Part shown: positions 1,352 through 58,835 of the stretch, piece by piece
Position numbering within the stretch: position 1 is the stretch's first letter
How the letters are laid out: every line of letters begins with the position of its first letter
Origin: a virus
Taxonomy: Duplodnaviria; Caudoviricetes
IMG/VR virus record: IMGVR_UViG_3300037714_000266
Location: 14,176 to 78,175 of that record
Reading direction: 5' to 3' (one strand)
Length of the DNA: 64,000 nucleotides
Made by a program: the position numbers and the translations under genes
Notes under the pieces: model-generated
What the model was told of the DNA's origin: nothing
Database searches by the model: none
The model's input: only the letters and a program-made list of their open reading frames with translations

Positions 1352-1755
1352 TCGTTTTCTCTTTGTGCAGACGTCTGCACCTTGGGGCGCTTGGGCCAAG
1401 GACCACCGCACGACCCACAAACGCCGGTTTTGGGCACTGGTTCACCAGATCCGACGTACGAATCGAGCCCCAAAGAACTGCAATCGGCACAGGTCATCGA
1501 ACCGGACCAACCAACGATGCTGTATTGCATCGCAGGTCTTTCAGATTCGGGTCTTTCACGGGAATGCTCAGGGCACAGATGGGAATCACCAAACAAATCA
1601 CGCTCCCAGCCTTTTGGCGTCTCCTCTACTCCGACGGTGTAAACCGTGCCGAACCGACTCGCGGTCAAGCGGCATTTCGTTATCGCGACGGCGTCGCACT
1701 GGACATCATTCGAGTCACGAAACTCGCACGAAATGACTGCTTCGAATCGGATCAC
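1348..1755 (-). CDS. Cys-rich hypothetical protein
   Basis: Several CxxC pairs; ATGA-coupled to the upstream HNH-like gene. Confidence 0.55.
   Translation of the reverse strand: MIRFEAVISCEFRDSNDVQCDAVAITKCRLTASRFGTVYTVGVEETPKGWERDLFGDSHLCPEHSRERPESERPAMQYSIVGWSGSMTCADCSSLGLDSYVGSGEPVPKTGVCGSCGGPWPKRPKVQTSAQRENE
1365..1380. repeat. 16-bp palindrome GTGCAGACGTCTGCAC, copy 1 of 5
   Basis: Exact sequence; read as VQTSA near the C-terminus of 1348..1755. Confidence 0.95.
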
Positions 1756-2129
1756 GAAATCTGCTCCTCAGGCTGGTTTCTATGCAAACGACATTTCCAG
1801 ACCACCAACCTCGGGTTGCTGTAGTCCTGGTGGTGCGCCTCCACTTTTTCGGTTCCGCACACCACGCATGGCTTTTTCTTGAGCTTGCCACGGCTCACCA
1901 AGACGTTGGTGTAGGCCCGGCACCTGGTCCTCCGCCTCTGCTCCTCAGTCATGTCCGCGTAAGATGGTCGGTTGGCCGCCATCCACTCCCGCTGATAGAC
2001 CCGCCGACACTCTCGGCAGTACGACCCGTCGACCTTGGGTCGCTCCTCGCACCGCGGACAAATCCCGTCGTGACGGCGTAGTTTCTTCGGGCCGCCGCCC
2101 CACTTCGACCAGAAGTCCTCCGTGTCCAT
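1752..2129 (-). CDS. Small HNH-type zinc-binding endonuclease-like protein
   Basis: CPRC, CREC and RGKLKKKPCVVCG...EAHHQDYSNPRLVVWKC, typical of small phage HNH proteins. Confidence 0.7.
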   Translation of the reverse strand: MDTEDFWSKWGGGPKKLRRHDGICPRCEERPKVDGSYCRECRRVYQREWMAANRPSYADMTEEQRRRTRCRAYTNVLVSRGKLKKKPCVVCGTEKVEAHHQDYSNPRLVVWKCRLHRNQPEEQIS

Positions 2130-2143
2130 GTTTCCCGGGAAAC
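2130..2143. promoter_or_regulatory. 14-bp palindrome GTTTCCCGGGAAAC, candidate operator
   Basis: Perfect inverted repeat directly abutting the start codon of 1752..2129. Confidence 0.35.
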
Positions 2144-2152
2144 TCTAACATA

Positions 2153-2542: not shown

Positions 2543-2546
2543 CGCC

Positions 2547-2942: not shown

Positions 2943-3586
2943 GTCAACCGATAGATGAGCTGAGCGAACTTGGCCACGTACTCTTTGACCTTCTCCTCAG
3001 ACCAGGCGTGAATGAGCGCGTACTCTGGGTTGAAGGTCTTGGTCACGTCCTCGGCCGCGAATGTGTCCTTGGCCGCCTCCAGCCACAGCGAAACGAGCAC
3101 ACCCTCTGTAGGCTCAACCTGAACGACCGCGACTCGCTTCCGGCTCCCGAGGATGAACCGGTACGGCCGATCCAGAACAGTGAACTCGTACCATGGCTTT
3201 TTCGAGTAGGCGTCCGACTCTGGCCAGTATCGGTTTGGGATCTCCTTCATCCGGAACGGTAGCCGGATGCCAGTCTCGAACAAACCGGTTCGAGCGCTGA
3301 AGAGAGCGTTACGAAACTCAGCGCGTTCATTGAGCGAGATATGTCTGACGAGGCATGTTTCGTGAACCCATTCCTCGACGAGCGACCAATGGATTTGGTC
3401 GGACAGAGACTCGGCGTTGGTCTCCCATCCGTAATTACAGATCCGACAGATCATCTCCCGGACGTCGACGATGATGGTCCCGGTTTTGCCCCGTCCGTCT
3501 TTGGTTCTGCGCCAACACCAGAGTTGGTCGAACTGGTCGAATCCGACCATCTGATCGTCAGTGAGGGGTCTTACGATGTCGTTCAT
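2939..3586 (-). CDS. Hypothetical protein
   Basis: ORF 2939..3664; start ATG 3586 overlaps upstream stop (ATGA). Confidence 0.65.
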   Translation of the reverse strand: MNDIVRPLTDDQMVGFDQFDQLWCWRRTKDGRGKTGTIIVDVREMICRICNYGWETNAESLSDQIHWSLVEEWVHETCLVRHISLNERAEFRNALFSARTGLFETGIRLPFRMKEIPNRYWPESDAYSKKPWYEFTVLDRPYRFILGSRKRVAVVQVEPTEGVLVSLWLEAAKDTFAAEDVTKTFNPEYALIHAWSEEKVKEYVAKFAQLIYRLT

Positions 3587-4236: not shown

Positions 4237-4245
4237 TACGCTCGT

Positions 4246-4273
4246 ATATTACCACCTAAGATGCGCTTGTCAA
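4246..4273 (-). promoter_or_regulatory. Sigma70-like early promoter TTGACA-N16-TAATAT
   Basis: Minus strand TTGACA AGCGCATCTTAGGTGG TAATATA; spacer resembles that of the promoter at 14964. Confidence 0.6.
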
Positions 4274-4432
4274 TGCCGCCTTGCATGCGTTGCAAACCGC
4301 GTACCCAGGCAGCGGTGCCTCGGACTCATCAGCAAGGATTTCTGGGTCAAGTTCTCCGCACGCCGCCTCGAAGTCGTCGTCTGGTGCCGAGAGATGCAGG
4401 GTCCATGTGAATAGCTGGATGACGTTGTTCAT
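4256..4432 (-). CDS. Small hypothetical protein (CxxC)
   Basis: C-terminal part of ORF 4256..4615; start uncertain. Confidence 0.35.
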   Translation of the reverse strand: MNNVIQLFTWTLHLSAPDDDFEAACGELDPEILADESEAPLPGYAVCNACKAALTSAS

Positions 4433-13166: not shown

Positions 13167-13277
13167 GGTGGCTTAACTTCCTTTCGTCGGGTCGTCATCG
13201 AGGTTTTGAGGCGCCTCGTTGCCTTTGTCGAAGTGATTGGAAACCTACCACAACAGTTTAGAAGTCCAGAGTTTCCG

Positions 13278-13293
13278 GTGCAGACGTCTGCAC
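13278..13293. repeat. 16-bp palindrome GTGCAGACGTCTGCAC, copy 2 of 5 (extends to 18 bp)
   Basis: Exact sequence, intergenic, just after the holin-like stop codon. Confidence 0.95.
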
Positions 13294-13299
13294 CAATCT

Positions 13300-13663
13300 C
13301 TAGCTAAGCTTTTTCCCGTAGTTGGCAACCGCACTCTTGATCGAACTGACGACCGTTGCGTAGGCGATCATCGCAACGGCACCCGCGCCGGCATAGAACA
13401 TCACACCACCGGCCATTCCCTCGGTTCGAAGAGCATCAGTCACCGGGATGCCAGGGATGAGCCCGATCAGTCCACCGACCACGACCGCGTGGAAGCGATA
13501 GGTGACGTAGTAGACGCCTTTGACCCCTGGGTAGCCGGTCTTCGGCATGTCCTTCTGATCGCCGAGGATGAGTTTTTTGGCGATCTCACCAGCCAACCCG
13601 ATGACGAGCACCGAGATCCACAGAGCTGGGTGAGCGATGTATGCAATGAGTGCGTCGAGCATG
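13300..13663 (-). CDS. Holin-like protein with about three TM helices
   Basis: Start ATG 13663 with AGGAGG RBS; three hydrophobic segments and a basic C-tail; near the spanin-like gene. Confidence 0.55.
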
Positions 13664-28138: not shown

Positions 28139-29722
28139 TCATGGCACCGTGAACACCGTCGCCGACGCGATCATGTGGTCGGTGTCGGCCTCGATAACGT
28201 CGGCCGGAACGATGTCGTAGTAATAACCGACGCTTGCCGCTGCTGTCACTATAGTCGCAGCTTGCGCGGTTGCTGTGATGTTCATAGTCGCCTGGACAGG
28301 TCCGAGGATGTGAATGATGTCAGTGAGTCGCACATGAATCGGCACGACTTGAAGCATTTTTTGGACGAGGCGCGTCAAAACACCAGCCAGCAACGCGTCC
28401 GGGTCCGTAAGTACCTCAGTGGGAATAACCTCAATCCGAAGGACCGACGCGCGACACCAATCACATCGTGCGACCCGGTGGCAGTCGTAGACCATGTCAA
28501 CGATACCGCCAAAGACCGGTGCGTCGCCCGCATACACTTCGACCTCCCAGTCATCGCCACCGACGTTGACCGGGGTCGTCTCCAAGTAGACGGGATCATC
28601 GAACTCGCCGTCGGGGAACTCTGCGTACCAATACCCGACTGAGAGGAGTTGCTCATCGATCGGCTGACCCACGCTGTTGGCCGTGAACCTGACCGACCAC
28701 CTACCGTCGGAGAGGTCAGCAGTCGACACGATCGTCATCCCTAGGACGTCGAGAGAGAGAGCGATGGCATCGTGCACCGTAGTCCCATCGGGAACCGTTC
28801 CAGACGCAGGCGGCTCAACCGGCTCAGATGCCCAGTTGGGTGTCTCGAAACAAAAGAAATCCAGAGGAATGGTGTCAGCCGGGATCTCGTCAAAGAACGG
28901 CTGATCCGGATCGAGGTCCGTGTAGAGTTTCCCACTGCCTATGGGAAGTTCGTAGACGTTTGCAGCCGGGATAGCAGCCGGTGCCGGATTGCTGATTCGC
29001 CATAGGCCAAGAGGAGTAGCTCTGTAGCCGCTGATCTTGCCGAGGATGTCGTACGCCTTGACCGTACCCTTTAGCGGAAGCCACTGACTGACATTCCGGA
29101 TGGCGCTGCGCTGGTAAGCTGCCGGCTCGTGCTGATCGATATCGACGCCGTAGTCGTTACCGAGAAGCTGAATGAGAGCTGGCGGTCGAAGCGTGGCGCC
29201 GGCAAACCCCACACCCTCAGTCGCCTCGGTCGCTGGCAAAGCCGTGCCAAAGAGCCGGATCACGGGGCCGCGGTCGTCGAGTTTGTGAACCGAGTTGACT
29301 CGAAACGTGGTCCCAGTAGCGTCCTCGAAGATCCACCCCACCGAGGCCGCCTGAAGAGGTTCTAAGGGGTCGCTCGGGTCCGGGTCGTCCAGAAACACCT
29401 CCACGGTCAACCCTCCCTCAGCAATAGCTGGAGGACTTCCTGGGGTTATCTGTGCGGACAGCGGTGTGATGGAGACGTTTTCGTCGAATTGTGTCCTGAC
29501 GAGATCCGGATCCCTGAGCGAATGGAAATCAACCACCCGCAGAAGCATCTCTTCAAAAAGCGGCTGTACCGATTCGGAGAATTTCTCCAAACGGTTTCCC
29601 TGTGCCGGCTGCCGATCTAGAAACCGATCGATTTCTGGCAGGTCGTTGAAGAGCACCTGCCGAGACCAATCGAATCTACCGAACGGACCAGAGCCGAACG
29701 AGCCGCTTCCAAAACCAGGCAA
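28139..29722 (-). CDS. Baseplate wedge protein (tail protein I-like)
   Basis: LLGNDYG...RSAIRNVSQWLPLKGT..AY..LG; C-terminal ..PIHV motif; TTG start with GGAGGG RBS. Confidence 0.7.
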   Translation of the reverse strand: MPGFGSGSFGSGPFGRFDWSRQVLFNDLPEIDRFLDRQPAQGNRLEKFSESVQPLFEEMLLRVVDFHSLRDPDLVRTQFDENVSITPLSAQITPGSPPAIAEGGLTVEVFLDDPDPSDPLEPLQAASVGWIFEDATGTTFRVNSVHKLDDRGPVIRLFGTALPATEATEGVGFAGATLRPPALIQLLGNDYGVDIDQHEPAAYQRSAIRNVSQWLPLKGTVKAYDILGKISGYRATPLGLWRISNPAPAAIPAANVYELPIGSGKLYTDLDPDQPFFDEIPADTIPLDFFCFETPNWASEPVEPPASGTVPDGTTVHDAIALSLDVLGMTIVSTADLSDGRWSVRFTANSVGQPIDEQLLSVGYWYAEFPDGEFDDPVYLETTPVNVGGDDWEVEVYAGDAPVFGGIVDMVYDCHRVARCDWCRASVLRIEVIPTEVLTDPDALLAGVLTRLVQKMLQVVPIHVRLTDIIHILGPVQATMNITATAQAATIVTAAASVGYYYDIVPADVIEADTDHMIASATVFTVP

Positions 29723-29733: not shown

Positions 29734-29749
29734 GTGCAGACGTCTGCAC
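29734..29749. repeat. 16-bp palindrome GTGCAGACGTCTGCAC, copy 3 of 5
   Basis: Exact; fills the intergenic gap between a stop codon (29751) and the next RBS. Confidence 0.95.
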
Positions 29750-29750: not shown

Positions 29751-31283
29751 TCAACTCGTGATGTTGTGTGCCATCACGTCGTTTCCGGTGCCGCCATCGA
29801 CGACTGGATTCGTCGGTCCAATGAGCAAACACCCGATCGCTTGGTTGTTCACGGTGTTTGCGGTCAACTCCAGGCCATTGGTGATTCCGGCCTCCACATT
29901 CACACCCCTGAACGCACAACGGTTCACGGTGTCATCGAACAGGACACCAGACTGCCCACCGACGCCTTCGATGGTCATGTCAGATCCAAGGAGTCGTGTG
30001 ATGGAATCCTGGATGTGAATACCCACCCACGAAGCATCTGCCGCAGCATTCCGGATCTGACCCTCTCCAACCTGCGATCTCGACGCTTGAGCGCTCACCT
30101 CGACGCCAATGTTGAACTGATCGTGAAAATTGAACCCACGCAGATGACATCGGTTACGCAACGCTGCCGCGATGTCGAGACCGTAGGCGACCGCGCCGTT
30201 GATCACATGCGGCTGCGTGGCCGTTGTTCCGCCAACCACCCGCCATCCAATGAGGTCAGCAGCCACAGAGTTGTCCCTAAGCGATGGTGCAGAGAAGATT
30301 TCGCAGTTGAGTTGTTTCGTAACAACCATGTTGTTCGATACCGAAAAAACACCTCGAATGAAGAGGTTGGTAGCCTGTGTACCACCATACGCACCAAGGA
30401 ACGTGACCCTGACGCGTTCGCATTTTGCGTAGTTTCCATTGAGCCTGACGACGTAGTCAGCCGTGTTTCCGGGACCGGTAGGTAACGCCACCTCAACGCC
30501 CACATCGACGAGTTGGCTGTCTTCGCTGAGCGTGATCGCGCTCATGTCGTCAGATGACTTCGTACGGATGATGCTCGCGCCTGCCGCAGCTCCGCGCACA
30601 CGTACGCCAGCAGGAACGATAAACGGTACGGTTGCTCCGACTCCGAGGTCGTAAACCCCTGGTCGGATGTAAACCTCTGTGTCACTAGTGGCCGCCGCCA
30701 GTGCCGCGGCGAGTTGCGCTCCATCGCCAATGTCGAGGTAATCGGCGTCGCTGGATACGTCACCGGCCCCGGTGTTGCCAACGATAATGGGCGCCGTCCG
30801 TGGATTGGCTCCTCCTGCGCCGCCGACCCCTTGTGCCGAGCCTATATTGGTGACCGCGTCGGTGTTGTTGAGAAGCAAACCATTGCGGACATAGAGTCTG
30901 TCGCCGATTCGTGTAGCGATCGCAAACGCGTCATTCGTCGACGGCACCGTGCTCGACGCTACAATCGCGACATTCGTGTTTGAACCCGGTGCCCGAGACA
31001 AGGTTACGTAGGCGGTCTCGCCATTGGCGATATCGATGTTGCCGGCAGGGATCTGCCACAAGAACCCAGTAATGGGTGCCGTGATCATCAACGCCGAGGC
31101 CCACGAGAACGTAGGCGCTGTCCAATTGATGACTCCGCCTTCGGCAAGGACGGCGTGACGATCTTCTCGCGATGCGTATCCGACAGCGTCTATCGCATTG
31201 ACGAAGTCACGAAACGCGTCGAACCACGGATCGTCTTCGGCCGACGGATACGGCAGAACCAAACGTGGTGACTGTTCAGCCAT
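29751..31283 (-). CDS. Tailspike / fibre with right-handed beta-helix (pectin-lyase-like)
   Basis: DGAQLAAALAAA...VYIRPGVYDL...VRVRGA followed by beta-helix repeats. Confidence 0.75.
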   Translation of the reverse strand: MAEQSPRLVLPYPSAEDDPWFDAFRDFVNAIDAVGYASREDRHAVLAEGGVINWTAPTFSWASALMITAPITGFLWQIPAGNIDIANGETAYVTLSRAPGSNTNVAIVASSTVPSTNDAFAIATRIGDRLYVRNGLLLNNTDAVTNIGSAQGVGGAGGANPRTAPIIVGNTGAGDVSSDADYLDIGDGAQLAAALAAATSDTEVYIRPGVYDLGVGATVPFIVPAGVRVRGAAAGASIIRTKSSDDMSAITLSEDSQLVDVGVEVALPTGPGNTADYVVRLNGNYAKCERVRVTFLGAYGGTQATNLFIRGVFSVSNNMVVTKQLNCEIFSAPSLRDNSVAADLIGWRVVGGTTATQPHVINGAVAYGLDIAAALRNRCHLRGFNFHDQFNIGVEVSAQASRSQVGEGQIRNAAADASWVGIHIQDSITRLLGSDMTIEGVGGQSGVLFDDTVNRCAFRGVNVEAGITNGLELTANTVNNQAIGCLLIGPTNPVVDGGTGNDVMAHNITS

Positions 31284-31932
31284 CTCGCCCCTCGTCAGCC
31301 TTCCAAGCGTCCCCGATGTCGTATGCCTCTTCCTCGTGCACCGAACCCCGGTAGGCGTTCTCTCCTCGGAGTCTGGCGGTCAATCCGTTGTAGATACCCA
31401 TCCACAGGTAGCCTACCCACCAGTTGAACAAGAAGATGGCAACGCCCCACCCAACATGCCCCAGTACGACAACTGTACCGCCGTTGTACAACCCAACAGC
31501 AAACGATCGCAGCATCGTGGCCTCGAACTGTTCGACATGAACGTGCTCGTGCTCCTGGGTTCTTCCCCATCCATTGAGATTGGCCGCTCCGGGTCCATAG
31601 AAGCCGCCGTGTCCCAGGGTGGTCCCTCCCCATGTGAGATACTTTCCGAGGCGGTTCGTTGCCGACGCCGGCCGAAGAAGCGGCTCCTCTTTCGTTAGGA
31701 ACGCGAACCAGCTCCCGCTGTCGTAGTGGGCGTACCAACTCCGTGTCGGCCATGAATCAGGCTTCAAGTCACACCACAGACTCTTACCGTCTCCGCTTTC
31801 CGGGTTCGGGTTTTGCTCCCACCTCAGATTCTCACCCCAGAGAAGACGGATGAGTAACACGAGTGGCCAGCACACCGTCAGGTTCCAAATGGCTGCGGTC
31901 ACGTACAACACGATATGTCGTTTGGTCTTCAT
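31276..31932 (-). CDS. Membrane protein with HExxH (HEHVHVEQ) motif
   Basis: N-terminal and C-terminal TM segments; coupled to both neighbours. Confidence 0.65.
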   Translation of the reverse strand: MKTKRHIVLYVTAAIWNLTVCWPLVLLIRLLWGENLRWEQNPNPESGDGKSLWCDLKPDSWPTRSWYAHYDSGSWFAFLTKEEPLLRPASATNRLGKYLTWGGTTLGHGGFYGPGAANLNGWGRTQEHEHVHVEQFEATMLRSFAVGLYNGGTVVVLGHVGWGVAIFLFNWWVGYLWMGIYNGLTARLRGENAYRGSVHEEEAYDIGDAWKADEGRDG

Positions 31933-34070
31933 GCCGAGATGGCTCCCGTCGTAGCAGAAACCGTCTGCGCGGTGAACGTAACGGTTCCTTTCGTGATGAC
32001 CTGCTGGTCGGTGACGATGAGGTTTCCGTCTGCGTTGATGAACAGAGCATCTCCGATGATCCTGATGACCCCGAAGTCGACGCCCTCGATGCCGCCTCGT
32101 CCGGTGTCTCTGTCTGGCACAAGGATCGTGTACAGATCGGACAGTCGAAGCGACCTGCCGAAAGCGCGGACCTTCAGCAACGTGTCAACGGCTGTACGTG
32201 CGTTGGAAAGCACGGTGGCCTGAACGTAAGTATCGAGGATACCGAGAACGATGGTGATGTCAGCAGACACGAGGAAGTTACCGCCGCTCATGACCTCGAC
32301 GACCTGGGTTACTTCCTTTCGAGATTCTAGGTACCGCTCTAGCGATCGCTGAAGAGCAATCGACGGCTCCTGAAGGAATCCATCAACGTCGCGCGTCAGA
32401 ATCGGCACCTGAACCAAATTGGCCTGACAGTCTGCTGCGAGGAACCCATCCACGTGGGCATAGATGTCATCCAACTCATCAGACACAGCCGTGTCGAACT
32501 GAGCTGCGATGAGCGTGTCGATGTCGTCAAGATCGGTTAGCGCAGCAGTCAGGTTTGTGCTGACAGTAGCAAGTCCAGGAGTAACGACGTTCGTAATCCC
32601 TTCGTTGGCATCGAACACCTGCTGCTCGATCGAACCGCATCTCGCGATGATCGTGTCTAGGCGGGAGTACATGCCAGCCAACTCGCTCTTGATCGAATTG
32701 AGTCTTGCGTTTTTTGCCGCATCTCCGCTTACACCAAGACCCTCGTCCGCAAGCACATCAGAATCGGTCACATCAGAGCGAATGGACTCAGCTTCGGATC
32801 GGATGTCGATCGCATCTCCGGTGGGCAGTGCGGTCAATGGATCGGTGACGATCTGATCAAGGGCCGGCTTAATCGTGTTCGAGACTTCGTCCTCGATGTC
32901 ACTTCTCTCTGACTCTGCGCTATTGAGAGATGCCCTTGCGGTTGCGGTTTCGGCCTGCACGTTGGCACTGATCGGCTCGATGATGTCTCGAATGTTCTGG
33001 AGAAGGATCTGAAGGGTGAGGTCTTCGGAGGCACCGCGAGCTACGAACGCTTGCGCAACGGCAACGGCCCCGGCCAAAGGATCAGCATAAGCCCTCGACA
33101 ACCCTTCGTAGTCCTCGCGAGTCACGGCAACATTACGGGCCTTGAAGAACGCCGGAGCATTGGCACGGATGCTATCCAGGGACTCTCGGTTCGACCCACC
33201 AGAGGATGGCGATGGGTTGGTGATGGTGATCTCGATGTTCGTGAAAGCAACCACCAACGGATCAACAACGTCGGTGATTGTATTCGACTTTACGAGCCCG
33301 GCCTGACCAGAAGTCGCCACGTATTCGATGCGGATGGATGCTCCGTCTGCCGGGATGTTGCCTGCTACACCATCGCCGAAACGAAGCAACGGCGGCTCCG
33401 CGTTCTCCTCTAGTTCGAACTGATCTGTCTGGTCGAAGGTGATGATCTCGCTTTCTGTCCACGGAGATCCATCAACAGTGACGATTGCACTGTCGCCGGC
33501 AACGAACTTCCCTTCGCCTGGGTTGAGTCGAAACACCTGGTTGCGAGTTCCGTTGGAAGAGAAGTTCTCGACAGTGGTAACACCCTCGCGCACCGATACG
33601 GTTCTAGGTGGGCTCAGAGGGCCTTCGCCAACCGGGAAGATGATCTCTTCTGCGGCTTCGAAGATGAGATCACTTGGTCCCTGGAACTGAAACCCAACCT
33701 CTATCGGCACATCGAACGCCTGGATCTCGTTGAGTAGAACTTCGAGATCGGTCGACGCGCCGACAGCCGCAGCGGGTTTGTAGCCGATGTTTCTTGATAG
33801 CCGGTTGAGTGATCGCCGAAGTCGTGCTGTCGCGATGTAACTCTCGGTTGCCTGTCGGTCGATGTAGAAACTCAGCGTCTCTGCGGCCCAGCACACGATG
33901 TCGATGAGCATCTGACCCGTCCCGGAGGAGACGAAGTCGTTGAACTCGGTGACGTATAGGATCTGAAGACGCGCAACCAGGTCATCGACGAATGTGAAGA
34001 AGTCTTTTCCGGCAAACCTTGCTCGATTGATGAGAGCCTGCGGAGACTCCAATTGAATTGGATCAGCCAT
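31929..34070 (-). CDS. Baseplate wedge J-like / T4 gp6-like protein
   Basis: KDF..FV...ESYIATAR...IGY; SNG..NQ.F; FGDG..G.IP; GGS.RES...IR..AP...RAVT.EDY. Confidence 0.9.
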   Translation of the reverse strand: MADPIQLESPQALINRARFAGKDFFTFVDDLVARLQILYVTEFNDFVSSGTGQMLIDIVCWAAETLSFYIDRQATESYIATARLRRSLNRLSRNIGYKPAAAVGASTDLEVLLNEIQAFDVPIEVGFQFQGPSDLIFEAAEEIIFPVGEGPLSPPRTVSVREGVTTVENFSSNGTRNQVFRLNPGEGKFVAGDSAIVTVDGSPWTESEIITFDQTDQFELEENAEPPLLRFGDGVAGNIPADGASIRIEYVATSGQAGLVKSNTITDVVDPLVVAFTNIEITITNPSPSSGGSNRESLDSIRANAPAFFKARNVAVTREDYEGLSRAYADPLAGAVAVAQAFVARGASEDLTLQILLQNIRDIIEPISANVQAETATARASLNSAESERSDIEDEVSNTIKPALDQIVTDPLTALPTGDAIDIRSEAESIRSDVTDSDVLADEGLGVSGDAAKNARLNSIKSELAGMYSRLDTIIARCGSIEQQVFDANEGITNVVTPGLATVSTNLTAALTDLDDIDTLIAAQFDTAVSDELDDIYAHVDGFLAADCQANLVQVPILTRDVDGFLQEPSIALQRSLERYLESRKEVTQVVEVMSGGNFLVSADITIVLGILDTYVQATVLSNARTAVDTLLKVRAFGRSLRLSDLYTILVPDRDTGRGGIEGVDFGVIRIIGDALFINADGNLIVTDQQVITKGTVTFTAQTVSATTGAISA

Positions 34071-35839: not shown

Positions 35840-37239
35840 GCGTCCTCTGATGGCAACGCATCGACGTCGGAACCGCCGCCGATCGCGTCATCGGTGGTTG
35901 CCTCTGGCGGATCCTGTTGATTGATTTGCGGAGGTCGAACCTGAAAGAAACTGGCAATGAGATCTGACTGCGTCGCGTTGTTCATACAGGTCATGGTCAT
36001 AGACCACTCACCAGCCATCGCTCGATGCGTCATGCCGTGGACCTCGAAGGTGCCATCGAGTCGACCGGTACCGCGAATAGCAATCAGTTCACCGGGAATC
36101 TGTTCAGGAACACCGATGGCTGTGATGGTTGCATTCATAGCACCACGAACAGCGCCTTCGTCCCTGTGCGCTTGAACGACCTGCAACGTGGTGCGACTCG
36201 GATCGCGTGCCGACACAGGAAGGTACTCACCGGCGTCCAACTGCGACCGAGCGTCGGCGAATATCTGAGACAAATGATCGCCAATGACAGATGATCCGGT
36301 AGCTGTTGCGATCGCGAGACCGAGACCAGGCACAATGCTCGTCTCCTGATTGACTACGTGTCGCTCGATCTCTTTGTTCGTGGGATTGATGTCTCCAGTG
36401 CGAACAGACTCCGCAGATCTCGGCATCCAAATACCGAGCGCATCCGACTCGTAATCGAGAATCGGAAAAACGTTGATCATGTCGATCTGACGCCGCATCA
36501 CATAGGTGCGCACCGGTCTTTCTTGATTCTTCTCTCCTCTGCTCAAGACAAAGAGTCTGCTGCGTCCAAGTTCGTGTGGATCTGGACCCATGTAGCAGTC
36601 GACGTTGGATTGACGGCAAAGTTGATTGATGAACCCCCAATCAGAAAAACCGCCCTGGCTAACGCTCTCACGCTGACGATCCAACTCTTCGGAGCCATCT
36701 GGGTACTGGACTGACCATCTATGCCGATCTGCAATGTCAGCGATCACGTCACGGTATGAAGTGTTTTCGTAGACCTTGTTCGATGAGCTACGCAGGCTCG
36801 CAAACGCTCCACCCTCCCCGTTGAGTGTGGCAAGAAGCCCATCGTCAGGGGCAATACGAATGGCTGGTTTGATAGCCATGGCACTGAACCACGGAGTGAA
36901 CCGACCTGACTTTGGGTAACCGAGTTGCGCCTCGATGACGTTGCCGATCTTGAACAACGAACTGTCCAGCATACGAAGACCGAGGTCATACGGCGCCGCT
37001 ATGGTGACGGTTAGCTTCCCGTTGAGCCCAAGATTCAGATCGATTTCGAGACTCTCGACGACTGGAAGATCGATGCCGGTGAGTTCTCCAGCACTCGCCA
37101 TGGCCGCCCCGCCAAGTCCGCTGCCGGGAGAACCCGTCGCTCCCTCAGTCGCAGACGTCCACAACAGATACGAAGGACCGTCGGTGTCGCGCACGCGCAC
37201 GAGCATCTGAAAGCCAGTCGGATCGAGAGCCTGTGTCAT
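35836..37239 (-). CDS. Baseplate hub (gpD/gp27-like)
   Basis: Position and SDWGFINQLC, G.P...PG..I.I.G.GRLDG.F.V....H motifs. Confidence 0.8.
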   Translation of the reverse strand: MTQALDPTGFQMLVRVRDTDGPSYLLWTSATEGATGSPGSGLGGAAMASAGELTGIDLPVVESLEIDLNLGLNGKLTVTIAAPYDLGLRMLDSSLFKIGNVIEAQLGYPKSGRFTPWFSAMAIKPAIRIAPDDGLLATLNGEGGAFASLRSSSNKVYENTSYRDVIADIADRHRWSVQYPDGSEELDRQRESVSQGGFSDWGFINQLCRQSNVDCYMGPDPHELGRSRLFVLSRGEKNQERPVRTYVMRRQIDMINVFPILDYESDALGIWMPRSAESVRTGDINPTNKEIERHVVNQETSIVPGLGLAIATATGSSVIGDHLSQIFADARSQLDAGEYLPVSARDPSRTTLQVVQAHRDEGAVRGAMNATITAIGVPEQIPGELIAIRGTGRLDGTFEVHGMTHRAMAGEWSMTMTCMNNATQSDLIASFFQVRPPQINQQDPPEATTDDAIGGGSDVDALPSEDA

Positions 37240-37569
37240 TCACCGGCCCTCCAACCCTCGCGACGGCCGACGAAGGATCTGCGAAAACACACGCCTGGCC
37301 GACGGGACCGTGATCACCTGCCCCTCGTAAAGGCCGTTGGGGATCAAATCAATCCCGTTCGCAAGGGTGATAATCCACCACAGATCGGAGGAACCATAAA
37401 AGTCGTTGGCGAGTCGGTCAGCGCGGTCATTTCGATCGACGATGTACCGCCGGTCGTCCGGAGCTGGATCGATCTTCGGATACTCAGGCATCTCCCAATA
37501 CTCGATGTTATCCAGCGTGCTCAGGCGCGCGAACTTCATCCGCGAGGTATCTCGGATCCGTACCGTCAT
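37240..37569 (-). CDS. LysM-like baseplate protein (gp53 / tail X-like)
   Basis: DRADRLANDFYGSSDLWWII..ANGI....G..I.VP. Confidence 0.85.
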   Translation of the reverse strand: MTVRIRDTSRMKFARLSTLDNIEYWEMPEYPKIDPAPDDRRYIVDRNDRADRLANDFYGSSDLWWIITLANGIDLIPNGLYEGQVITVPSARRVFSQILRRPSRGLEGR

Positions 37570-40500
37570 CGCGTCTCATGATCCGGGCCGGGCCCGGCGA
37601 CACGAGGCGAAGCGCCGCGTGGTGTGGGATTTCTGTCGCCGCCCATGACACTTCGAAGCTGACGCATTGCTTCGGATCCAAATGCTTTGATCATCATGTC
37701 GCGCTCGGCCTCGCGTTCCGTTTGCTGAGCCTCGCGCTGGGCCTGACGGCGTTCTCTGTCACGCTGGGCCGGAGGTGTCTCCCCGGTCGTTGCGGCCCTT
37801 CCATCAACGCGTGGCCTGCCATCAGAGGTCACGGTCGGCCGCTCGTCCGCTGCCTCGCCACCACCAGGACCCACACCGATGCCGGCTAGGGTTCGCTCTA
37901 TCTCACTGCTCGTAAATCCACGCCCAGCACTAACCGCCTGTTCGATGTCAGACACGGCAGCACTGAACTGCTCTTCGCCGATTCGTCCCTCTTGCGCAGC
38001 CTGTGCGATCCCTTCCAAAAGTGGACGCGCAGATTGGTAGGCTTCTTGGACTCGTTCCTGGCGAGCACGACCTGCCAACCTTCCGCTTTCGACGTCGGAG
38101 ACAAACTGCCGAAGCCTGCTGGTTGCGCGGTCGAAGAACGCTTCTGTCGAAACAGCGAACTCCCTGATGCCACTCACTGTGGATTCAAGCGACACCGCCT
38201 GGTTGTGCTGATATGCACTGGCCTGGCTTTCCATGGTGTTGTACGCGTTGGCTGTAGCAGTGGCCTGCTGAGCGATCTCGCGCGTCATCCTAGCTGTTTC
38301 GATCCGATACGCCTCGCCTCTTGCGCGAGACTTACGCTCCATCTCGTCAAGTTGTTCGTCGAGTTCTGTGATCGGCTCCTGGATCCGAGTCCTCATCTCG
38401 TTGAGGTTTCGATCGATGGGACCCAGATCGACACCAATGCGCGAGAGAACACCTCGTAGCGGCTGGAGGTTTTGGATGAAGTCGAGGATGAGCAAAGGTA
38501 GGTTTCTGAAACCCCTCTCGATGCGCATCATCCCGCCTTCCATGCCTTCGAACAGGTTGGTGAAATGAAAGTCCGCGAACGCGATGGCCATTCCAACGCT
38601 GTTGCGAATGGTTGTTCCAATCAACTCCCACCCAGCCGACAAAGTGTTACGCCAACCGATCCACCGAATGACCAACATTCCGATGGCAGTTTCAATGGTG
38701 TTGAAAGCTGTCACGGCAGTGGTCGCGATGTGCCCGAATGTTCGCACCGCCACCGTAAGAGCGGTGCTCATCGTGTTCACCCACGTATGGGCCAAACGAA
38801 CTATCACGGGCCTGATCACGTTGGACCACATCCACTTGGCGGCGACACCGATCTTCTGCCAGACCCACTTAGCCGCTGGCCATATGTGCTTCACGAAGAC
38901 CTCGACGACCTCTTTTTTCAGATCCTTGAGCATCGGCGAAACGGTTTCTTCCCAGAACGCGAGCGCCATGCTGGCAAGATCCTGCCAAAGAAGGATCGCC
39001 TCATCGATGATGGGGTTGATCTCGGTGTCCCAGTAGTCAACGAAGTCGTTGAAGGTCGGCTGAACAACGTCTTCCCAGAAGCCTCCGATGAGATCAGCTC
39101 CGAAGATGTTCGTGAAGAGAGTTCGGACGCGACCTGGTAGGCCCATGAGAGCCAAGTTGAATACCGAGAAGAATCCCTCGAACAGCACGTCACCCCAATC
39201 GCCGTCCTCGATGGCGCGTTGGAGATTGCCGAGGTTTGTTGAATCCCAGAGAAAACCAAAGATGCTGTTGAAAATGCCGCCGCCGGTCTCTCCAAACATA
39301 CCCTCGGTGATCCCGCTCATCATCGTGCCGAGGTTGGTGAAGATGGACCGAATCGCTCCGGCAACAGAACGCAAGATCTCGCGACCGCGTCCGCCCTCGC
39401 CAAAGGATGCGAAGATGGTCACGAGCCCGTCCTTGATGCTCTCACCAACGGCTTGCCAATCGACCGAGTCGACCCAGTCCCCGACCTTGCCGGCGAGGTC
39501 TTCGAGGTAGACGCCTGCGTTCTCGATCAACGGAAGCAAATCATCCCAGTAGTAAATGGCTGCTGCGATACCGCCGACGAGCAACGTCCACGGGTTGAGA
39601 AGGAATCCAATGGCGCCGCCGAGACCCGGCATCATGGCGGCCATCTGAGTCATCGCGAGGATGAGTGGACCAGCCTCAGTGGCGCCTTCGAACAAACCGG
39701 CGCCAAACATACCGATGAGTGGCAAATTCTTCTCGATGGCTTCCGGAAGTTGAATCCCAAGACTCGGCAAAAGCCGCGTCTTTATCGACTCCACCAAACC
39801 AATGATGCCGTGCCTCCTGAAGTCGAGGAACGCCTGGGTGAGTCCACCAACTGGTCCATCTTCGGCCCGCAGTCCTTCGATGGTGTTTTCGAGCGTTTGG
39901 AACGCCCTTCGCTGCCTACCAAGCACCTCGCTATTACTCAGCGTCGTCATCCGGTTGAGATGAGTCTCAAAGCTGTCCCGCATCCGCTCCATGTTCTCAC
40001 CGAACGTGCGCCCGCTGGCCGCCGCCGATCGTCCCATCCGGTTGAAGGCCCCGGTGATGTTCTCAACGGGCGCCTGAGCGCGCTGTAGAGCCGCTGCGGC
40101 GTCGTCTCCGCCGGTGACGAGGAACCGGAAGGACGTCGGCAACTCCTCCAAGGACGCCATCAAACGCATCGCGCGAGGATCGGACGCGTCGAGTTGACTC
40201 ATGAGTTGCTGCATGTTGGCAGCGAACGTGATCGGATCGCTCATCACACTCTGAAGGGCGCCGTCGATGTCGCCGCTGGCAATACCAATCTCTTGAGCGA
40301 GGTGAGGGAAATCGCTGGCAACGCCCGAGACAAGATCGCGGATCTGCCGTCTCTGTCCGCCGAGTGCTGTAAAAGTAGCGATCGCGTCCTGCATGGCTGC
40401 GTTGGCGTCGCCACCGAGTCTGTCGACGCTCGCTTTGGCGAGTCTAGCGATGGATTCCGTAACCTCGTCGATGCCGGGTGCAGCTCCAGGTGGGAATGCA

Positions 40501-41186
40501 CTGATGATCCCATCGGCCGCTTCGGTGATATTCGGCAAGGCTCGCGCGAATTCGCTCCCCGCACCGATACCCTCGCCAAGAGCAGTCAAGGTGTCGAGGA
40601 CTCGTTGTGCGCCGTCCGTCCCGAGGTCGTACCCGTGCGCCAACGAAGTGAGTGTAGAGCCAAGCTGTTCGGCCGAAAGAATGCCAGCTTGCATCGAACC
40701 GGCGACACCTCGCACTGTCAGTCCGTAGTCTGATAACTCGTCGCCCGATTGAACGATGCGGCGGATCCCTTGGACCATCTCGCCCGCATCGACGCCAAGG
40801 TCGTATGCCACGCCTCCGATGGCGCCGCGATACCGGTTCATCTGCGCCGTCATGTCGCCCATGCCAGCCGTTGCAGCACGAAACGACGCCGCGTACTGAG
40901 CACCAAAGGACTCAGCAGCCGTGTCCTGTGCCGAGGGTCCTAGCGCCCCTGCGCGCTCGGCAATACCTTCAAGCGCTCCGCGGATGTTCGTGAGTTGATG
41001 GAGGTTCAGAGCGCCAATAGCATTGCCGAACCGCTGAAGCATGTTCGATGACTTGCCGACTTGCTTGACGTTCTCCTTCAGATCGTCCATCCCGCCGGCC
41101 AGACGTTCGGTCATGACCACGGCGCCATCGTCCTTGGCTCCGAACAGGAACCCGAACGAGAACAGCCGTTTGATGCTTCCAGCCAC
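37566..41186 (-). CDS. Tape measure protein
   Basis: 1206 aa, helical, Ala/Gly-rich with W/F repeats; between chaperone and LysM genes. Confidence 0.9.
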   Translation of the reverse strand: MAGSIKRLFSFGFLFGAKDDGAVVMTERLAGGMDDLKENVKQVGKSSNMLQRFGNAIGALNLHQLTNIRGALEGIAERAGALGPSAQDTAAESFGAQYAASFRAATAGMGDMTAQMNRYRGAIGGVAYDLGVDAGEMVQGIRRIVQSGDELSDYGLTVRGVAGSMQAGILSAEQLGSTLTSLAHGYDLGTDGAQRVLDTLTALGEGIGAGSEFARALPNITEAADGIISAFPPGAAPGIDEVTESIARLAKASVDRLGGDANAAMQDAIATFTALGGQRRQIRDLVSGVASDFPHLAQEIGIASGDIDGALQSVMSDPITFAANMQQLMSQLDASDPRAMRLMASLEELPTSFRFLVTGGDDAAAALQRAQAPVENITGAFNRMGRSAAASGRTFGENMERMRDSFETHLNRMTTLSNSEVLGRQRRAFQTLENTIEGLRAEDGPVGGLTQAFLDFRRHGIIGLVESIKTRLLPSLGIQLPEAIEKNLPLIGMFGAGLFEGATEAGPLILAMTQMAAMMPGLGGAIGFLLNPWTLLVGGIAAAIYYWDDLLPLIENAGVYLEDLAGKVGDWVDSVDWQAVGESIKDGLVTIFASFGEGGRGREILRSVAGAIRSIFTNLGTMMSGITEGMFGETGGGIFNSIFGFLWDSTNLGNLQRAIEDGDWGDVLFEGFFSVFNLALMGLPGRVRTLFTNIFGADLIGGFWEDVVQPTFNDFVDYWDTEINPIIDEAILLWQDLASMALAFWEETVSPMLKDLKKEVVEVFVKHIWPAAKWVWQKIGVAAKWMWSNVIRPVIVRLAHTWVNTMSTALTVAVRTFGHIATTAVTAFNTIETAIGMLVIRWIGWRNTLSAGWELIGTTIRNSVGMAIAFADFHFTNLFEGMEGGMMRIERGFRNLPLLILDFIQNLQPLRGVLSRIGVDLGPIDRNLNEMRTRIQEPITELDEQLDEMERKSRARGEAYRIETARMTREIAQQATATANAYNTMESQASAYQHNQAVSLESTVSGIREFAVSTEAFFDRATSRLRQFVSDVESGRLAGRARQERVQEAYQSARPLLEGIAQAAQEGRIGEEQFSAAVSDIEQAVSAGRGFTSSEIERTLAGIGVGPGGGEAADERPTVTSDGRPRVDGRAATTGETPPAQRDRERRQAQREAQQTEREAERDMMIKAFGSEAMRQLRSVMGGDRNPTPRGASPRVAGPGPDHETR

Positions 41187-42426: not shown

Positions 42427-43074
42427 CTACCCGTTGAGTGTCGTCAGAGCCATTACCCTGGACCACTCTTGCTGCTTCTTCTTCTTCCGCTTCACCGGGG
42501 CGACACGACGCAATGGAGTTCCTATCGGAACCGGCGCCGTAGCGATGTTACCCGTACCCATGACCCCGCCCGTGCCCGCGTGGGTTGCGCCCTGCTTCAC
42601 GGGACCAAGCACCGCACCAGAGGTCGTCATTTCAGTTTTGGCGGTCTCCATGCATACCTTGCAGTCGATGTTCACGCCGGGTTCTGAGCCGCACTTCTTG
42701 CATCCACCGTTACCGCCGACATTGATGAGCGCCATCATCTTTGCGTAGCGACCACCAACCTGTGCAGACGTCTGCACCGCTTCGGTAGCATCCTTGCCGA
42801 TGGCATCGTCGTCAGATCCGGAACCGCCGTGCGTTTGGGTTTTTGGCTCCTGCGGCGTATTGGCGTCGGTCTTTTTCCCCTTTGTGGCCTTTTTCTTCTT
42901 CTGGCGACGGTATCCAACGATCCCTTCTTCGCCGCCATCGCCGTCCATGCTGCCGCTCATCTGAAGAAAGAAGGCACTCAGGGGCAGGAATATCTTCCCT
43001 GGTCCCATCTTAGAGGTCTTGCCCTCGGCCCCCACGGGCCCGCCAACGGTCTTGGTTCCACCTGGATACGGCAC
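42427..43074 (-). CDS. Low-complexity basic protein with CxxC motifs
   Basis: 215 aa, G/K-rich. Confidence 0.55.
   Translation of the reverse strand: MPYPGGTKTVGGPVGAEGKTSKMGPGKIFLPLSAFFLQMSGSMDGDGGEEGIVGYRRQKKKKATKGKKTDANTPQEPKTQTHGGSGSDDDAIGKDATEAVQTSAQVGGRYAKMMALINVGGNGGCKKCGSEPGVNIDCKVCMETAKTEMTTSGAVLGPVKQGATHAGTGGVMGTGNIATAPVPIGTPLRRVAPVKRKKKKQQEWSRVMALTTLNG
42762..42777. repeat. 16-bp palindrome GTGCAGACGTCTGCAC, copy 4 of 5
   Basis: Exact; read as VQTSA in a low-complexity region. Confidence 0.95.
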
Positions 43075-55705: not shown

Positions 55706-55770
55706 TGTTCTCTCTCTACCTCCCGACAGGATTACTGCCGTCTCACACGATGATCAACTTTTGGGTCGAC

Positions 55771-58323
55771 TCAGGTCTCGGCGAACTTCTGCTGTACGCG
55801 GAACACGACGAACTCGCCTGGGGTGTTGGCCGCGACGAAGATGTCGCAGATGACCTCTCCGGCTTGTTCGACGTTGGATGGGTTGTTGGTCTCGTCGCAG
55901 ATGACCTTAAACGCCTGGTCCGGCGTGCTGCCAGCGAAAAGACCCTGCTGGAAAAGTCCGAGCAAGAAGGTCTCGACCGAGAGTTGAATCCGGGCACGGA
56001 GCGCAGCGCCCACGTTCTCGAAGACGAATCCGTGAGTGGAGTTGAAGATGCTGCTCTTCAGGAAGTTGAAAAGCCGTCTGACGTGAACGAATCGGAAATC
56101 CCCTGGCGGATTCTCCAACGTCCGTGCTCCCCAGACCGCGCGTCCGGTCTGTGGGGTGTCGACGAGCGCGTTGACCTGCGCCTGGAAGAAGGAGTCGATC
56201 TCGGCGAATTCCAGATTCCGCTCTAGGCCGACCGTGAAGTTGAGGCGCCCATCGACGGTACCCGCCGGGGCCTTGCCGACGCTCTTCGTGGTATCGGTCC
56301 TGGCGTAGACCCCAGCGATGTGGCCGATTGGCGGGATGTTGAGACCGCGATCGGTGACCGGGTCCGTGATGCGGATGTAGGGGTAGTACAGAGCCGCGTA
56401 GGAGCTGCTGATCCCCAGGGAGTTCCGACGGTAGTCCCGAGCGCCCTGCGGCGTCAGACCCGGTCCGGTGGCCAGGATGACGAACCACTTGCCGTTCGTC
56501 TCGGCCTCGGCAACCTGCTCGACCGCCATGGTGACGTCACCGGCTGCATCGGGGATACCTAGGTTGATCAGTTCGTTAGTCGTCAGCAGGGCGTACATGC
56601 CCTCGCGTGCCGTCTTGAGAGTGGGGTTGGTCAACTCGTTGCGAGTGATGCCCGCCACACCGTCGCTGCCGCCCGTCAGAGCATCGGTGGTCGATCCGTC
56701 TTGGACCGGCTCCGTGTAGTAGGCCATGTTGATGACCGATCCGGCGACATTGCCGGTTGGTGCCGCCAGGTGACTCGTCTCGGCCGCGCTTGGCGCCTGG
56801 CCGGCAGGGACTCGGAACGCGAAGGCCCCTGTCGTGTAGTTGATGACGTTGTACCCGGCCGGAGCGACCGGATCGACGTCGCCGATGAGATTGCCGACGC
56901 CGTCATCGGTGATGGTCCGCGTCTCACCGGTCGAGTCGACGTAGGTGATGATCACAGAGGCCGACTGAATGGGAGTGTCGGCGATCGCGTCCGATCGGAA
57001 GGCAACCGGAATGGTTGCCGTGCCGGCAGTGCCGTCGGTCGACCCGAAGTCGAGTTGAATACCGTCTCCGCCGCCGAGAACGAAACCACGGAGCACACCA
57101 TTGAGTTGTGCCGGGGCGACGTCTTCGTTTGACGGCTCGACGAGACGAAGCAGATCTGACCCTTGATCCGCGTCGTTGATGGCCGTCGCGAAGTAGTCCG
57201 AGCTGCTCGGATCTGTTGCGATGAGTTCGGCGATCGACTCTTCGTTAACGCCGTCGAGGTTGATCAAGACGTCGTAACGCGAGTACGAAGCCGTCGCACG
57301 ATCGAAGTAGTTTGGATTGCCGCGGACCTGGATCGTCAGATCGTTGCCCCAGACACCAGCCGAGATGGGATCGATGTCCCATACGCGCTGAGTGTAGGAT
57401 GCCGAGATTGCGAGCCCGAGAGACGGCGCATCTGCGCCCGCATCGATCGTGAACTCGATCTCACCAGTGTCGTAATCGATCGTTCCCGGTGTCGAGAGGA
57501 TCGGACCGATGCCGACAGGGATGCCGCCGAGTCCGTCGTCGACAAGAGTGATGACGATGTCAGCCGGCGTGTAGTCGGCGGTGATGTCTGTTGCAGTGTC
57601 TGGCTCATTGCCAGTTTCGGCCGACAAGGTGACGAGTCCAGTCTCGTAGTCGACATATCCACGGAGGCTGTTGCCTGCATCGTAGAGTCGTCCCTGGCCG
57701 ATGTCGCTGGGTCCCGGTGCGTTGGCACTGTCGTCGTACGAAACAGTCGCCGGTCCGGTGATGGTTGTGTCGATGTTGACCGACCCGGGAACGATCAACG
57801 CATTGGCGGCGACCTGAATGTAGAACGAGAAGTCCAGCACCGCGTCATCGGGCGCTGAACTTGGCGTCACGACCTGCGCAGCCACAGGGGTGCCGTCGTT
57901 GTACCAGGAGAGCGACATGGATCCTGGCTCCACCGGCACGTGAGCCAGCGTGAGAGGACCAGAGCCGCCGGCCGTGTAGTCCTTCTCGGCGCCGTCGCTG
58001 AGAATGAGTTCCTCGGCGACGTAGTCACTCGTGATGAACCCGTCGGCCGCGACCGCATCTGCGGCCACGACGCGGACCACATACGCCAAGCGCCCACCAT
58101 TCGCGAAGAACGCGAAGAGGTGAGTGGGCATCTGCGAGTCCTCGGTGAACCCACCGAACTGTCGTTCGAACGATTCGTACCCGGTGACGAGGACAGCCTC
58201 GTTTGTGGGGCCCTTGATCGTGAACCCGACGGTTCCGTAATTGCTCGTACTGACGCCCTGAATGGGAGCCAGTCCACGCGCTCGCTCTTGGACGTATACG
58301 CCTGGATGAAGCCGTTCGACCAT
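55771..58323 (-). CDS. Tail sheath protein
   Basis: HPGVYV.E...VGFT.KGP...FFANGG..AYVVRV; YAALYYPY...PP.GH.AG.YARTD..K.VGKAPAG; WGARTL...FVHVRRL; PGEFVVFR. Confidence 0.97.
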   Translation of the reverse strand: MVERLHPGVYVQERARGLAPIQGVSTSNYGTVGFTIKGPTNEAVLVTGYESFERQFGGFTEDSQMPTHLFAFFANGGRLAYVVRVVAADAVAADGFITSDYVAEELILSDGAEKDYTAGGSGPLTLAHVPVEPGSMSLSWYNDGTPVAAQVVTPSSAPDDAVLDFSFYIQVAANALIVPGSVNIDTTITGPATVSYDDSANAPGPSDIGQGRLYDAGNSLRGYVDYETGLVTLSAETGNEPDTATDITADYTPADIVITLVDDGLGGIPVGIGPILSTPGTIDYDTGEIEFTIDAGADAPSLGLAISASYTQRVWDIDPISAGVWGNDLTIQVRGNPNYFDRATASYSRYDVLINLDGVNEESIAELIATDPSSSDYFATAINDADQGSDLLRLVEPSNEDVAPAQLNGVLRGFVLGGGDGIQLDFGSTDGTAGTATIPVAFRSDAIADTPIQSASVIITYVDSTGETRTITDDGVGNLIGDVDPVAPAGYNVINYTTGAFAFRVPAGQAPSAAETSHLAAPTGNVAGSVINMAYYTEPVQDGSTTDALTGGSDGVAGITRNELTNPTLKTAREGMYALLTTNELINLGIPDAAGDVTMAVEQVAEAETNGKWFVILATGPGLTPQGARDYRRNSLGISSSYAALYYPYIRITDPVTDRGLNIPPIGHIAGVYARTDTTKSVGKAPAGTVDGRLNFTVGLERNLEFAEIDSFFQAQVNALVDTPQTGRAVWGARTLENPPGDFRFVHVRRLFNFLKSSIFNSTHGFVFENVGAALRARIQLSVETFLLGLFQQGLFAGSTPDQAFKVICDETNNPSNVEQAGEVICDIFVAANTPGEFVVFRVQQKFAET

Positions 58324-58373
58324 GCCTACCTCCGCCCCCGCGAAGGGTGCGTGTCATCATCACGAGTTGGGGT

Positions 58374-58835
58374 TCAGGTGTCTGAATCTGAGCCGCTGCT
58401 CAAACCCCTACGCCTCTTCCGGCGTCCTCCCTGTGAGGACAAACCAGACTCCTTCTCCTTCGACGACTCTTCAGCTCCGGCTTCTTCTTCTACTACTACC
58501 GCGGACGACTCTACCACAGCCGTCTCCCAAGACGCAGAACTTGGATCCTCGGAAACTTCCTTTGGATCTGGCTCTGGTTCGCTTTTCGAGACCATCGACT
58601 TGGCCACGTCCTGTGGTGCAGACGTCTGCACAGGCGCCGACTCTGAAGCCACTGGCAAAGCCGGTACTGGCTTCTTTTTCAGGTCCGGAAGACGCTTGAT
58701 CAATCCGGCTTGAATGAGGTGCTGCACTGCGGCAACCGGCGCTTCGAACTTGGTTCGTGGAGTGAGAATACGCGGGCCGCGTTCGGGATCGTTGTAGTTC
58801 GCGGTCGAGGTGCCCTTGTAATACCAACGTGCCAT
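58374..58835 (-). CDS. Hypothetical protein with disordered C-terminus
   Basis: 153 aa, E/S/P-rich tail. Confidence 0.6.
   Translation of the reverse strand: MARWYYKGTSTANYNDPERGPRILTPRTKFEAPVAAVQHLIQAGLIKRLPDLKKKPVPALPVASESAPVQTSAPQDVAKSMVSKSEPEPDPKEVSEDPSSASWETAVVESSAVVVEEEAGAEESSKEKESGLSSQGGRRKRRRGLSSGSDSDT
58616..58631. repeat. 16-bp palindrome GTGCAGACGTCTGCAC, copy 5 of 5
   Basis: Exact; read as VQTSA in a disordered linker. Confidence 0.95.

Follow-up and report, generated by a model that had tools for sequence, protein, structure and literature searches.

What reads a 16-bp perfect palindrome that recurs, letter for letter, along the genome of a tailed phage? The stretch studied here, called the window in what follows, has 64,000 nucleotides and spans bases 14176–78175 of a 78,175-bp IMG/VR contig (IMGVR_UViG_3300037714_000266; Caudoviricetes), for which CheckV gives a completeness of 41%. 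It holds five exact copies of GTGCAGACGTCTGCAC, hereafter the word (Table 1). The original prediction took them for a candidate phage centromere or genome-organising site, bound by a ParB-like or other dimeric protein. An exact scan bears out the five copies and their positions, and the predicted chance rate of about 2e-5 copies per window is reproduced from base composition. The analysis shows the word to be real, evenly spaced, conserved in position under DNA-level selection, and common to unrelated phage lineages; it usually co-occurs with a gene of the ParB family. The reading that we favour, with about as much reserve as confidence, is that it forms a lattice of predicted loading sites for a clamp of the ParB/KorB type, and not a partition centromere.

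The Word in the Window and in a Complete Relative

When up to two mismatches are allowed, the window contains no copies of the word beyond the five exact ones. Dinucleotide shuffles of the window lead one to expect 0.03 matches, and none of 100 shuffles reaches five. When the 60-nucleotide (nt) flanks of the copies are aligned, the common part is restricted to the 16 bases themselves. A sixth exact copy lies at contig position 3107, 12,433 bp upstream of the first copy in the window. The sub-words AGACGTCT and GTGCAGAC are found on the contig solely within these six copies, that is, the motif is all-or-none. The successive gaps between the six copies are 12433, 11913, 16456, 13028, and 15854 bp (about 14 kb), with a coefficient of variation (CV) of 0.13, against 0.77 for random placement (P = 0.001 for the CV, P = 0.0002 for the minimum gap). 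The even spacing that had been predicted across all functional modules thus holds, at P ~0.001.

Scanning the contigs of bacterial genomes for the exact word leads to a contig of 183,466 bp (G006:C445, hereafter C445; loci L245–L254) binned in a metagenome-assembled genome (MAG) of Phycisphaerae. The same 141 bp stand at both of its ends, which makes it a complete genome, either circular or terminally redundant. The genome is that of a jumbo phage, probably mis-binned, and the Phycisphaerae host label is unreliable. The two genomes are collinear, with 16–78 kb of our contig corresponding to 61–121 kb of C445 at protein identities of 40–85%. C445 has 12 exact copies of the word, five with one mismatch, and one with two, i.e., 18 copies around the whole circle, whereas the rest of the 7.6-Mb MAG has a single match, with two mismatches, on another contig. 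The recount that the prediction called for, in the rest of the genome and in relatives, thus adds the sixth copy of our contig and these 18.

Five sites of our contig have positional counterparts in C445. In these pairs 79 of the 80 bases of the word are identical, while the alignable flanks are 64–75% identical and some flanks cannot be aligned at all. Because the word is conserved above its flanks, selection acts on the DNA word and not on the peptide. The original prediction had supposed a DNA-level signal tolerated by the proteins, to be abandoned if orthologous genes kept the peptide VQTSA and lost the palindrome; the opposite is found, as the palindrome is kept without synonymous drift. 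The site is also kept at the orthologous junction in L060, a third fragment of the jumbo lineage. A search of IMG/VR and JGI metagenomes for more relatives of this lineage, using ParB, a protein of the baseplate region, and alignments, gave none that passed tblastn.

Spacing and Placement of the Sites

On the C445 circle, the 18 sites are also more even than expected, the CV being 0.43 (P = 0.00015) and no gap being shorter than 4.2 kb (P = 0.0003). For the exact copies alone the spacing is not significant, and the copies with one or two mismatches occupy the gaps between the exact ones. Hence, slightly degenerate copies are part of the lattice. The test was applied to five independent genomes; apart from our contig and C445, these are G005:C220 (P = 0.0006), G005:C504 (P = 0.015), and Variovorax phage VarioGold (P = 0.018).

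In C445, 231 of the 253 genes are on the minus strand. The 6.7% of non-coding DNA holds 7 of the 18 sites (binomial ~1e-4), usually 1–12 nt past the stop codon of the upstream gene. Some sites directly abut the next ribosome site: at window position 29734, the order is stop, 1 nt, word, AGGAGG, 5 nt, and the TTG start of the gene 28139–29722. This site has neither a sigma-70 promoter consensus nor a terminator consensus. Coding copies read VQTSA in 13 of 14 cases (~6e-6) and lie in protein tails or low-complexity linkers. VQTSA is the cheapest of the three frames, the alternatives being CRRLH and ADVCT. In the window, the two intergenic copies just past stops and the three coding copies reading VQTSA are as originally described. 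Symmetry extends to the preferred flanking bases (K before the word, M after). The word is thus placed where its coding cost is lowest, and such placement is the expected product of a spacing constraint on a double-stranded symmetric site.

The Word in Other Phages and in Bacterial Genomes

Exact matches to the word were found in at least 119 IMG/VR stretches and in at least 120 from the bacterial genome collection. As uniform chance alone would give about 140 matches in the 596 Gb of the latter, single matches mean little. The matches are, however, concentrated in Betaproteobacteria and clustered. In four host genomes, all copies but one fall within clusters of 28–36 kb, one cluster per genome; the stray copy is on another contig of G002. 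Apart from this stray copy, the word in these genomes is specific to phage DNA and absent from host chromosomes outside prophages. In an 'Acidoferrum' MAG, two contigs have 13 and 14 copies at a spacing of about 3–4 kb.

Either the word or a co-varying form, GTGCACACGTGTGCAC, tiles temperate phages of Betaproteobacteria of about 40 kb. Among 50 IMG/VR records of 30–80 kb, 41 bear two to seven copies. The array is present in two cultured phages that are both integrating siphoviruses: VarioGold, with six copies when up to two mismatches are allowed, and Acidovorax phage Aval. Aval has the symmetric variant GTGCACACGTGTGCAC (G6/C11), which is found in 78 further IMG/VR stretches. One of the records with this variant, G057 (IMGVR_UViG_3300034152_000419, 76.8 kb; L354–L357), has 11 copies spaced by about 7 kb. 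Its head module is distantly related to that of the jumbo lineage, and the record, which is 74% complete, gives no ParB match. Besides the dispersed copies, there are paired copies 27–156 bp apart (G026:C1:14608/14635, L008:3671/3731, L184:387/543), and these close pairs in temperate phages may be paired sites at one locus. A full-text search of a literature library for the word and its cores found no relevant paper.

ParB-Family Proteins of the Carriers

The temperate phages with the motif encode a protein of 500–950 amino acids (aa) with ParB_N, HTH_ParB, and a zinc ribbon (p35 in VarioGold, gp06c in Aval). This large ParB lies in or beside the motif cluster in all five host genomes, and it is present in 43 of the 50 motif-bearing IMG/VR records (38 of the 41 with two or more copies). 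One copy of the word is inside parB itself, where it codes for (S/G)ADVCT as xGT GCA GAC GTC TGC AC. Phages of the GTGCACACGTGTGCAC class, picked by a word outside parB, also carry the large ParB, and in seven of eight of them the Val codon of the parB site has gone from GTC to GTG, a synonymous change that gives the hybrid GTGCAGAC-GTGTGCAC. To judge from these codons, the half-site that can change synonymously within parB has followed the rest of the genome, as in concerted change. Loci of the original class, chosen by an extragenic copy, have GTC in four cases and GTG in one (Fisher's P ~0.03 against the variant class). G005:C504 has essentially only ParB in common with the other motif loci, so that the link is more than whole-phage kinship. 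The same contig encodes a GmrSD_N (DUF262) protein (L261:16723–17841, i.e., 36723–37841 of G005:C504), with homologues in the motif-bearing L196 and L170.

C445 encodes a different, smaller protein. This ParB-like protein of 301 aa (163699–164604), reached through a weak HTH_ParB match and PHROGs, matches phrog_1033 ('ParB-like partition protein') at 6e-20 and has 131 homologues, of which those with a source name are all called ParB. It retains the GxRR and ENxxRxD boxes, and the profile of its family matches the large ParBs at 1e-7 to 1e-20. Its AlphaFold model (predicted local distance difference test, 93.9) matches the structures of Noc, ParB, and KorB with a probability of 1.0 and template-modelling scores of up to 0.73. 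Neither Pfam ParB_N nor the family profile of the large ParBs has a match on C445. Directly upstream of the small ParB there is a 1022-aa helicase of the SNF2 family (L253:4605–7673, i.e., C445 164605–167673, minus strand), interrupted by an intein-like LAGLIDADG/Hom_end insert. A more distantly related small ParB, that of L264, also has an SNF2 gene with this insert about 6 kb upstream of it.

What Reads the Lattice?

Chance matches, assembly or adapter artefacts, and footprints of mobile elements deserve next to no credence. Nothing speaks for them but the oddity of perfect copies, and against them stand the few matches expected in shuffles, the presence of the word in isolate genomes and in cultured phages from different laboratories, its in-frame reading through genes, and its conservation at orthologous positions in a relative as diverged as C445; moreover, the copies show no shared flanks and no target duplications. 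An RNA hairpin, with a 6-bp stem and an ACGU loop, acting in the long minus-strand transcripts in processing, stability, or translational coupling, is very improbable in our judgement. The word does fold at −7.8 kcal/mol, its intergenic copies abut ribosome sites 1–12 nt past stops, and the G6/C11 variant preserves pairing; but the loop is itself palindromic and invariant, the stem shows no co-variation past this one symmetric swap, and the preferred flanks are symmetric too. There is also no T-run, within its context the stem folds weakly (z = −0.14 at site 29734), and an RNA element would not be expected to be identical in unrelated phages and evenly spaced over 10–14 kb. The original idea of a centromere has no better standing if it means a true parS of a ParABS system segregating a plasmid-like jumbo prophage. 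The linear plasmid prophage N15 has dispersed centromere sites, the word is a 16-bp palindrome with a parS-like ACGT core, and there is a ParB-family gene in C445. Yet this complete 183-kb genome has no ParA-type ATPase (the MAG gives 11 matches to PF13614, all of them outside C445, and our contig gives none) and no tyrosine integrase was found in it, and its 18 sites tile the genome without a cluster at the par operon, the sites nearest to parB being 3.4 and 6 kb away. The same array is found in integrated proviruses with integrases, and integrated prophages need no partition. The partition role is not supported.

The original prediction is partly upheld, with a ParB-like protein as the candidate reader. 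ParB-family genes accompany the word, as an orphan in C445 and in most of the temperate records, but our own contig lacks one. Several observations weigh against such a reader. The 78-kb contig, being 41% complete, gives no ParB match, and the candidate is known only from C445, in a region that our contig lacks. Three contigs of 14.7, 9.7, and 4.5 kb (29 kb in all), with small ParBs 72, 53, and 64% identical to that of C445, have no word at up to three mismatches. The helix-turn-helix (HTH) helix of the 72% relative, like that of a 64% relative on a further contig, is one residue off that of C445; the helix of the 53% relative is more different. No ParB was detected in the arrays of G005:C220 (13 sites), G013, G034, G042, and G057, most of these records being incomplete. 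Although both subfamilies go with the same word, small and large ParBs have dissimilar HTH helices. The association with ParB is also partly circular, since the copy inside parB helps to retrieve such phages, and the co-variation at the parB site may stem from few independent evolutionary events.

The arrays without a detected ParB, the word-free contigs of close small-ParB relatives, and the differing HTH helices of the two subfamilies would all suit a different account, which we consider possible but doubtful: some other sequence-specific dimeric protein, of phage or host, reads the lattice as a roadblock, insulator, or organiser, and ParB is merely a frequent neighbour since a site lies in its gene. 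What the jumbo lineage, G005:C220, G005:C504, G013/G034/G042, G057, Aval, and VarioGold share is, however, limited to ParB-type, nucleoside deoxyribosyltransferase-like, and structural proteins. A search for a family common to all motif lineages (tblastn, blastp, and phmmer to E 0.01) returned only a MazG-like domain (with Aval gp04c), DUF3268, DUF1643, and nucleoside 2-deoxyribosyltransferase-like proteins, none of which is a DNA reader and none of which is widespread. For a host reader one would expect chromosomal sites, and there are almost none outside prophages. Operators of CI/Cro are excluded in VarioGold, as its immunity region has no copy of the word.

Under the favoured reading, a clamp-loading lattice of the ParB/KorB type, the palindrome would be where a symmetric dimeric protein docks on the double-stranded DNA of the phage, and it would be kept as a lattice over the whole chromosome. 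The likeliest reader would be an orphan clamp of the ParB/KorB/Noc type that has no ParA partner. It would load at each site, close with cytidine triphosphate (CTP), and slide for a few kb, so that sites at even intervals would leave no part of the genome uncovered. This could serve genome-wide transcription control, compaction, or the marking or shielding of phage DNA. ParB as the reader, its sliding, and the purpose of the lattice are what we infer. A bolder and rather unlikely extension is that one word serves as a common self-mark of phage DNA across jumbo myoviruses, temperate siphoviruses of about 40 kb, and ParB-less elements. Its readers would be orphan ParB-CTP clamps from different subfamilies, which would coat the whole chromosome from the lattice, e.g., to shield or organise it. 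Carriers without ParB would use a clamp borrowed from a co-resident prophage, or would compete for it.

Three elements are new here: one exact word common to a jumbo myovirus lineage and to many temperate siphoviruses with a different ParB subfamily, the concerted change of codons within parB, and the presence of the array in cultured integrating phages, VarioGold and Aval, which makes the idea directly testable. Phages and prophages commonly encode orphan ParB-fold proteins, many of which are listed in a 2025 survey that gives neither sites nor a function for them (PMC12704722). A precise candidate site array, with DNA-level selection, even spacing, and concerted site change, is now tied to such proteins. 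If true, a whole-chromosome grid for clamp loading would amount to a new way of organising or protecting a phage genome.

Comparison with Known Systems

Chromosomal parS sites resemble the word in being 16-bp palindromes with a central ACGT and in having one copy inside parB, as in the large phage ParBs. Their arms are unlike TGTTNCACGTGAAACA, and on the phage side there is no ParA and the sites are not clustered near the origin. The stoperators of mycobacteriophage L5 are asymmetric, oriented with transcription, and read by the immunity repressor. Like the word, they are many identical short sites in short intergenic gaps, and one phage protein binds them; the word differs in being perfectly palindromic and in having no copy within the VarioGold immunity region. 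They are contrasted, in the Discussion of PMC4351075, with a repeat of Cluster O mycobacteriophages, a 17-bp dyad TGTTCGG-N3-CCGAACA in more than 30 invariant copies, predicted to be the target of a dimeric protein and of unexplained function. These phages are non-temperate and encode a protein with a ParB-like domain but no parA (PMC4351075). As with our word, the invariant inverted repeat occurs throughout the genome, between open reading frames (ORFs) or near their ends, and off promoters. It differs in sequence from GTGCAGACGTCTGCAC, its hosts are Actinobacteria, its spacing is about 2 kb, and neither sharing across lineages nor an even-spacing statistic is reported for it.

KorB is a CTP clamp of the ParB family with 12 dispersed OB operators on the IncP plasmid RK2 (PMC11790492). 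The likeness would lie in a clamp at short palindromes scattered round a mobile replicon, which acts at a distance and needs no ParA for regulation. Dispersed copies are found here as well (six on our contig, 18 in C445, two to seven on the 41 temperate-phage records), and the model of the small C445 ParB matches the KorB structure 8qa9 with a probability of 1.0. The differences are another word, a phage instead of a plasmid, and even spacing of 3–14 kb at sites that seem mostly off promoters and are often intragenic. Furthermore, no KorA-like partner has been identified for the phage ParBs, none having been sought, and binding in the phages is predicted. BisD, which acts at bisS of ICEclc, is a ParB-like clamp with sites inside genes and long-range action (PMC12409273). 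It is similarly an orphan, on a mobile element of Beta- and Gammaproteobacteria, has intragenic palindromes, spreads across tens of kb, and bears a long extension at its C-terminus, as the large phage ParBs do. In contrast, there are only two bisS, which lie 2 kb apart and have another sequence, an 11-bp inverted repeat; they form no lattice, and BisD acts together with BisC as an activator.

Features of the Window and Minor Observations

The matches to PHROG families for tail sheath, tape measure, baseplate wedge, and tail fibre identify the window as the structural region of a large myovirus (Table 1). Pfam has no family for ORF 42427–43074 or ORF 58374–58835. A look-up of sequencing runs finds the stretch in several sediment metagenomes.

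Table 1. Sites of the word in the window, their counterparts in C445, and structural genes nearby
Feature	Position	Strand	Location	Remarks
Palindrome copy 1	window 1365..1380		C-terminal tail of minus-strand ORF 1348–1755	exact match; ...VQTSAQRENE, then stop
Counterpart of copy 1	C445 61350		same kind of tail, gene 61336–62154	...VQTSAHEEP, then stop
Palindrome copy 2	window 13278..13293		intergenic, 6 nt past stop of upstream minus-strand gene 13300–13662/13800
Orthologue of copy 2	C445 73437			15/16 bases kept; flanks 71–75% identical
Palindrome copy 3	window 29734..29749		28-nt spacer between genes 29751–31283 (minus; stop 1 nt away) and 28139–29722 (minus)
Orthologue of copy 3	C445 84312			word identical; flanks 67–70% identical
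Palindrome copy 4	window 42762..42777		minus-strand ORF 42427–43074 (215 aa), about residue 100	VQTSA, low-complexity stretch
Counterpart of copy 4	C445 97183		positional counterpart gene	word identical; flanks unalignable
Palindrome copy 5	window 58616..58631		minus-strand ORF 58374–58835 (153 aa), just upstream of tail sheath gene	VQTSA, Pro/Ala/Ser-rich
Orthologue of copy 5	C445 115342		same frame	word identical
Tail sheath gene	window 55771..58323	minus	context	phrog_23, phrog_58, and phrog_219 cover sheath, tape measure, and baseplate wedge
Tape measure	window 37566–41186			PHROG match
Baseplate wedge	window 31929–34070			PHROG match

Some candidate roles were set aside. The hairpin of the word, at the folding energy given above and with no T-run, does not qualify as an intrinsic terminator, and a terminator scan is negative at 29734. 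Targeting by the guide of a dead TnpB was rejected, as AGACGTCT is nowhere outside the six contig copies and no guide therefore carries it. A ParB-dependent T-dioxygenase system (PMC13229309) was not retained, its ParB having no DNA-binding domain. Cyanobacterial matches to the word represent another use, in which it is the core of an inverted repeat of about 50 bp (…TTGTGAATTAGTGCAATTAA-word-TTAATTGCAC…) flanking a 1.9-kb element (L148:1001/2898, L125:2606/4573, L156, L173); this two-gene element is 80% identical between two genomes. Similar lattices described for further large phages, in one case with TGGAGACGTCTCCA as a related core, are unchecked leads and lend no support.

At site 13278 the flanks lengthen the hairpin (window 13264–13310, minus strand; −21 kcal/mol, z = −4.35), and this extension is absent at the orthologous site of C445. 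A nucleoside 2-deoxyribosyltransferase-like protein (phrog_355, DUF7768) is encoded at 2153–2542 of the window (minus strand) and at 61336–62154 of C445. The C445 gene runs into the VQTSA tail that bears site 61350, and in the window the gene corresponds to two ORFs (2153–2542 and 1348–1755), either split or mis-called.

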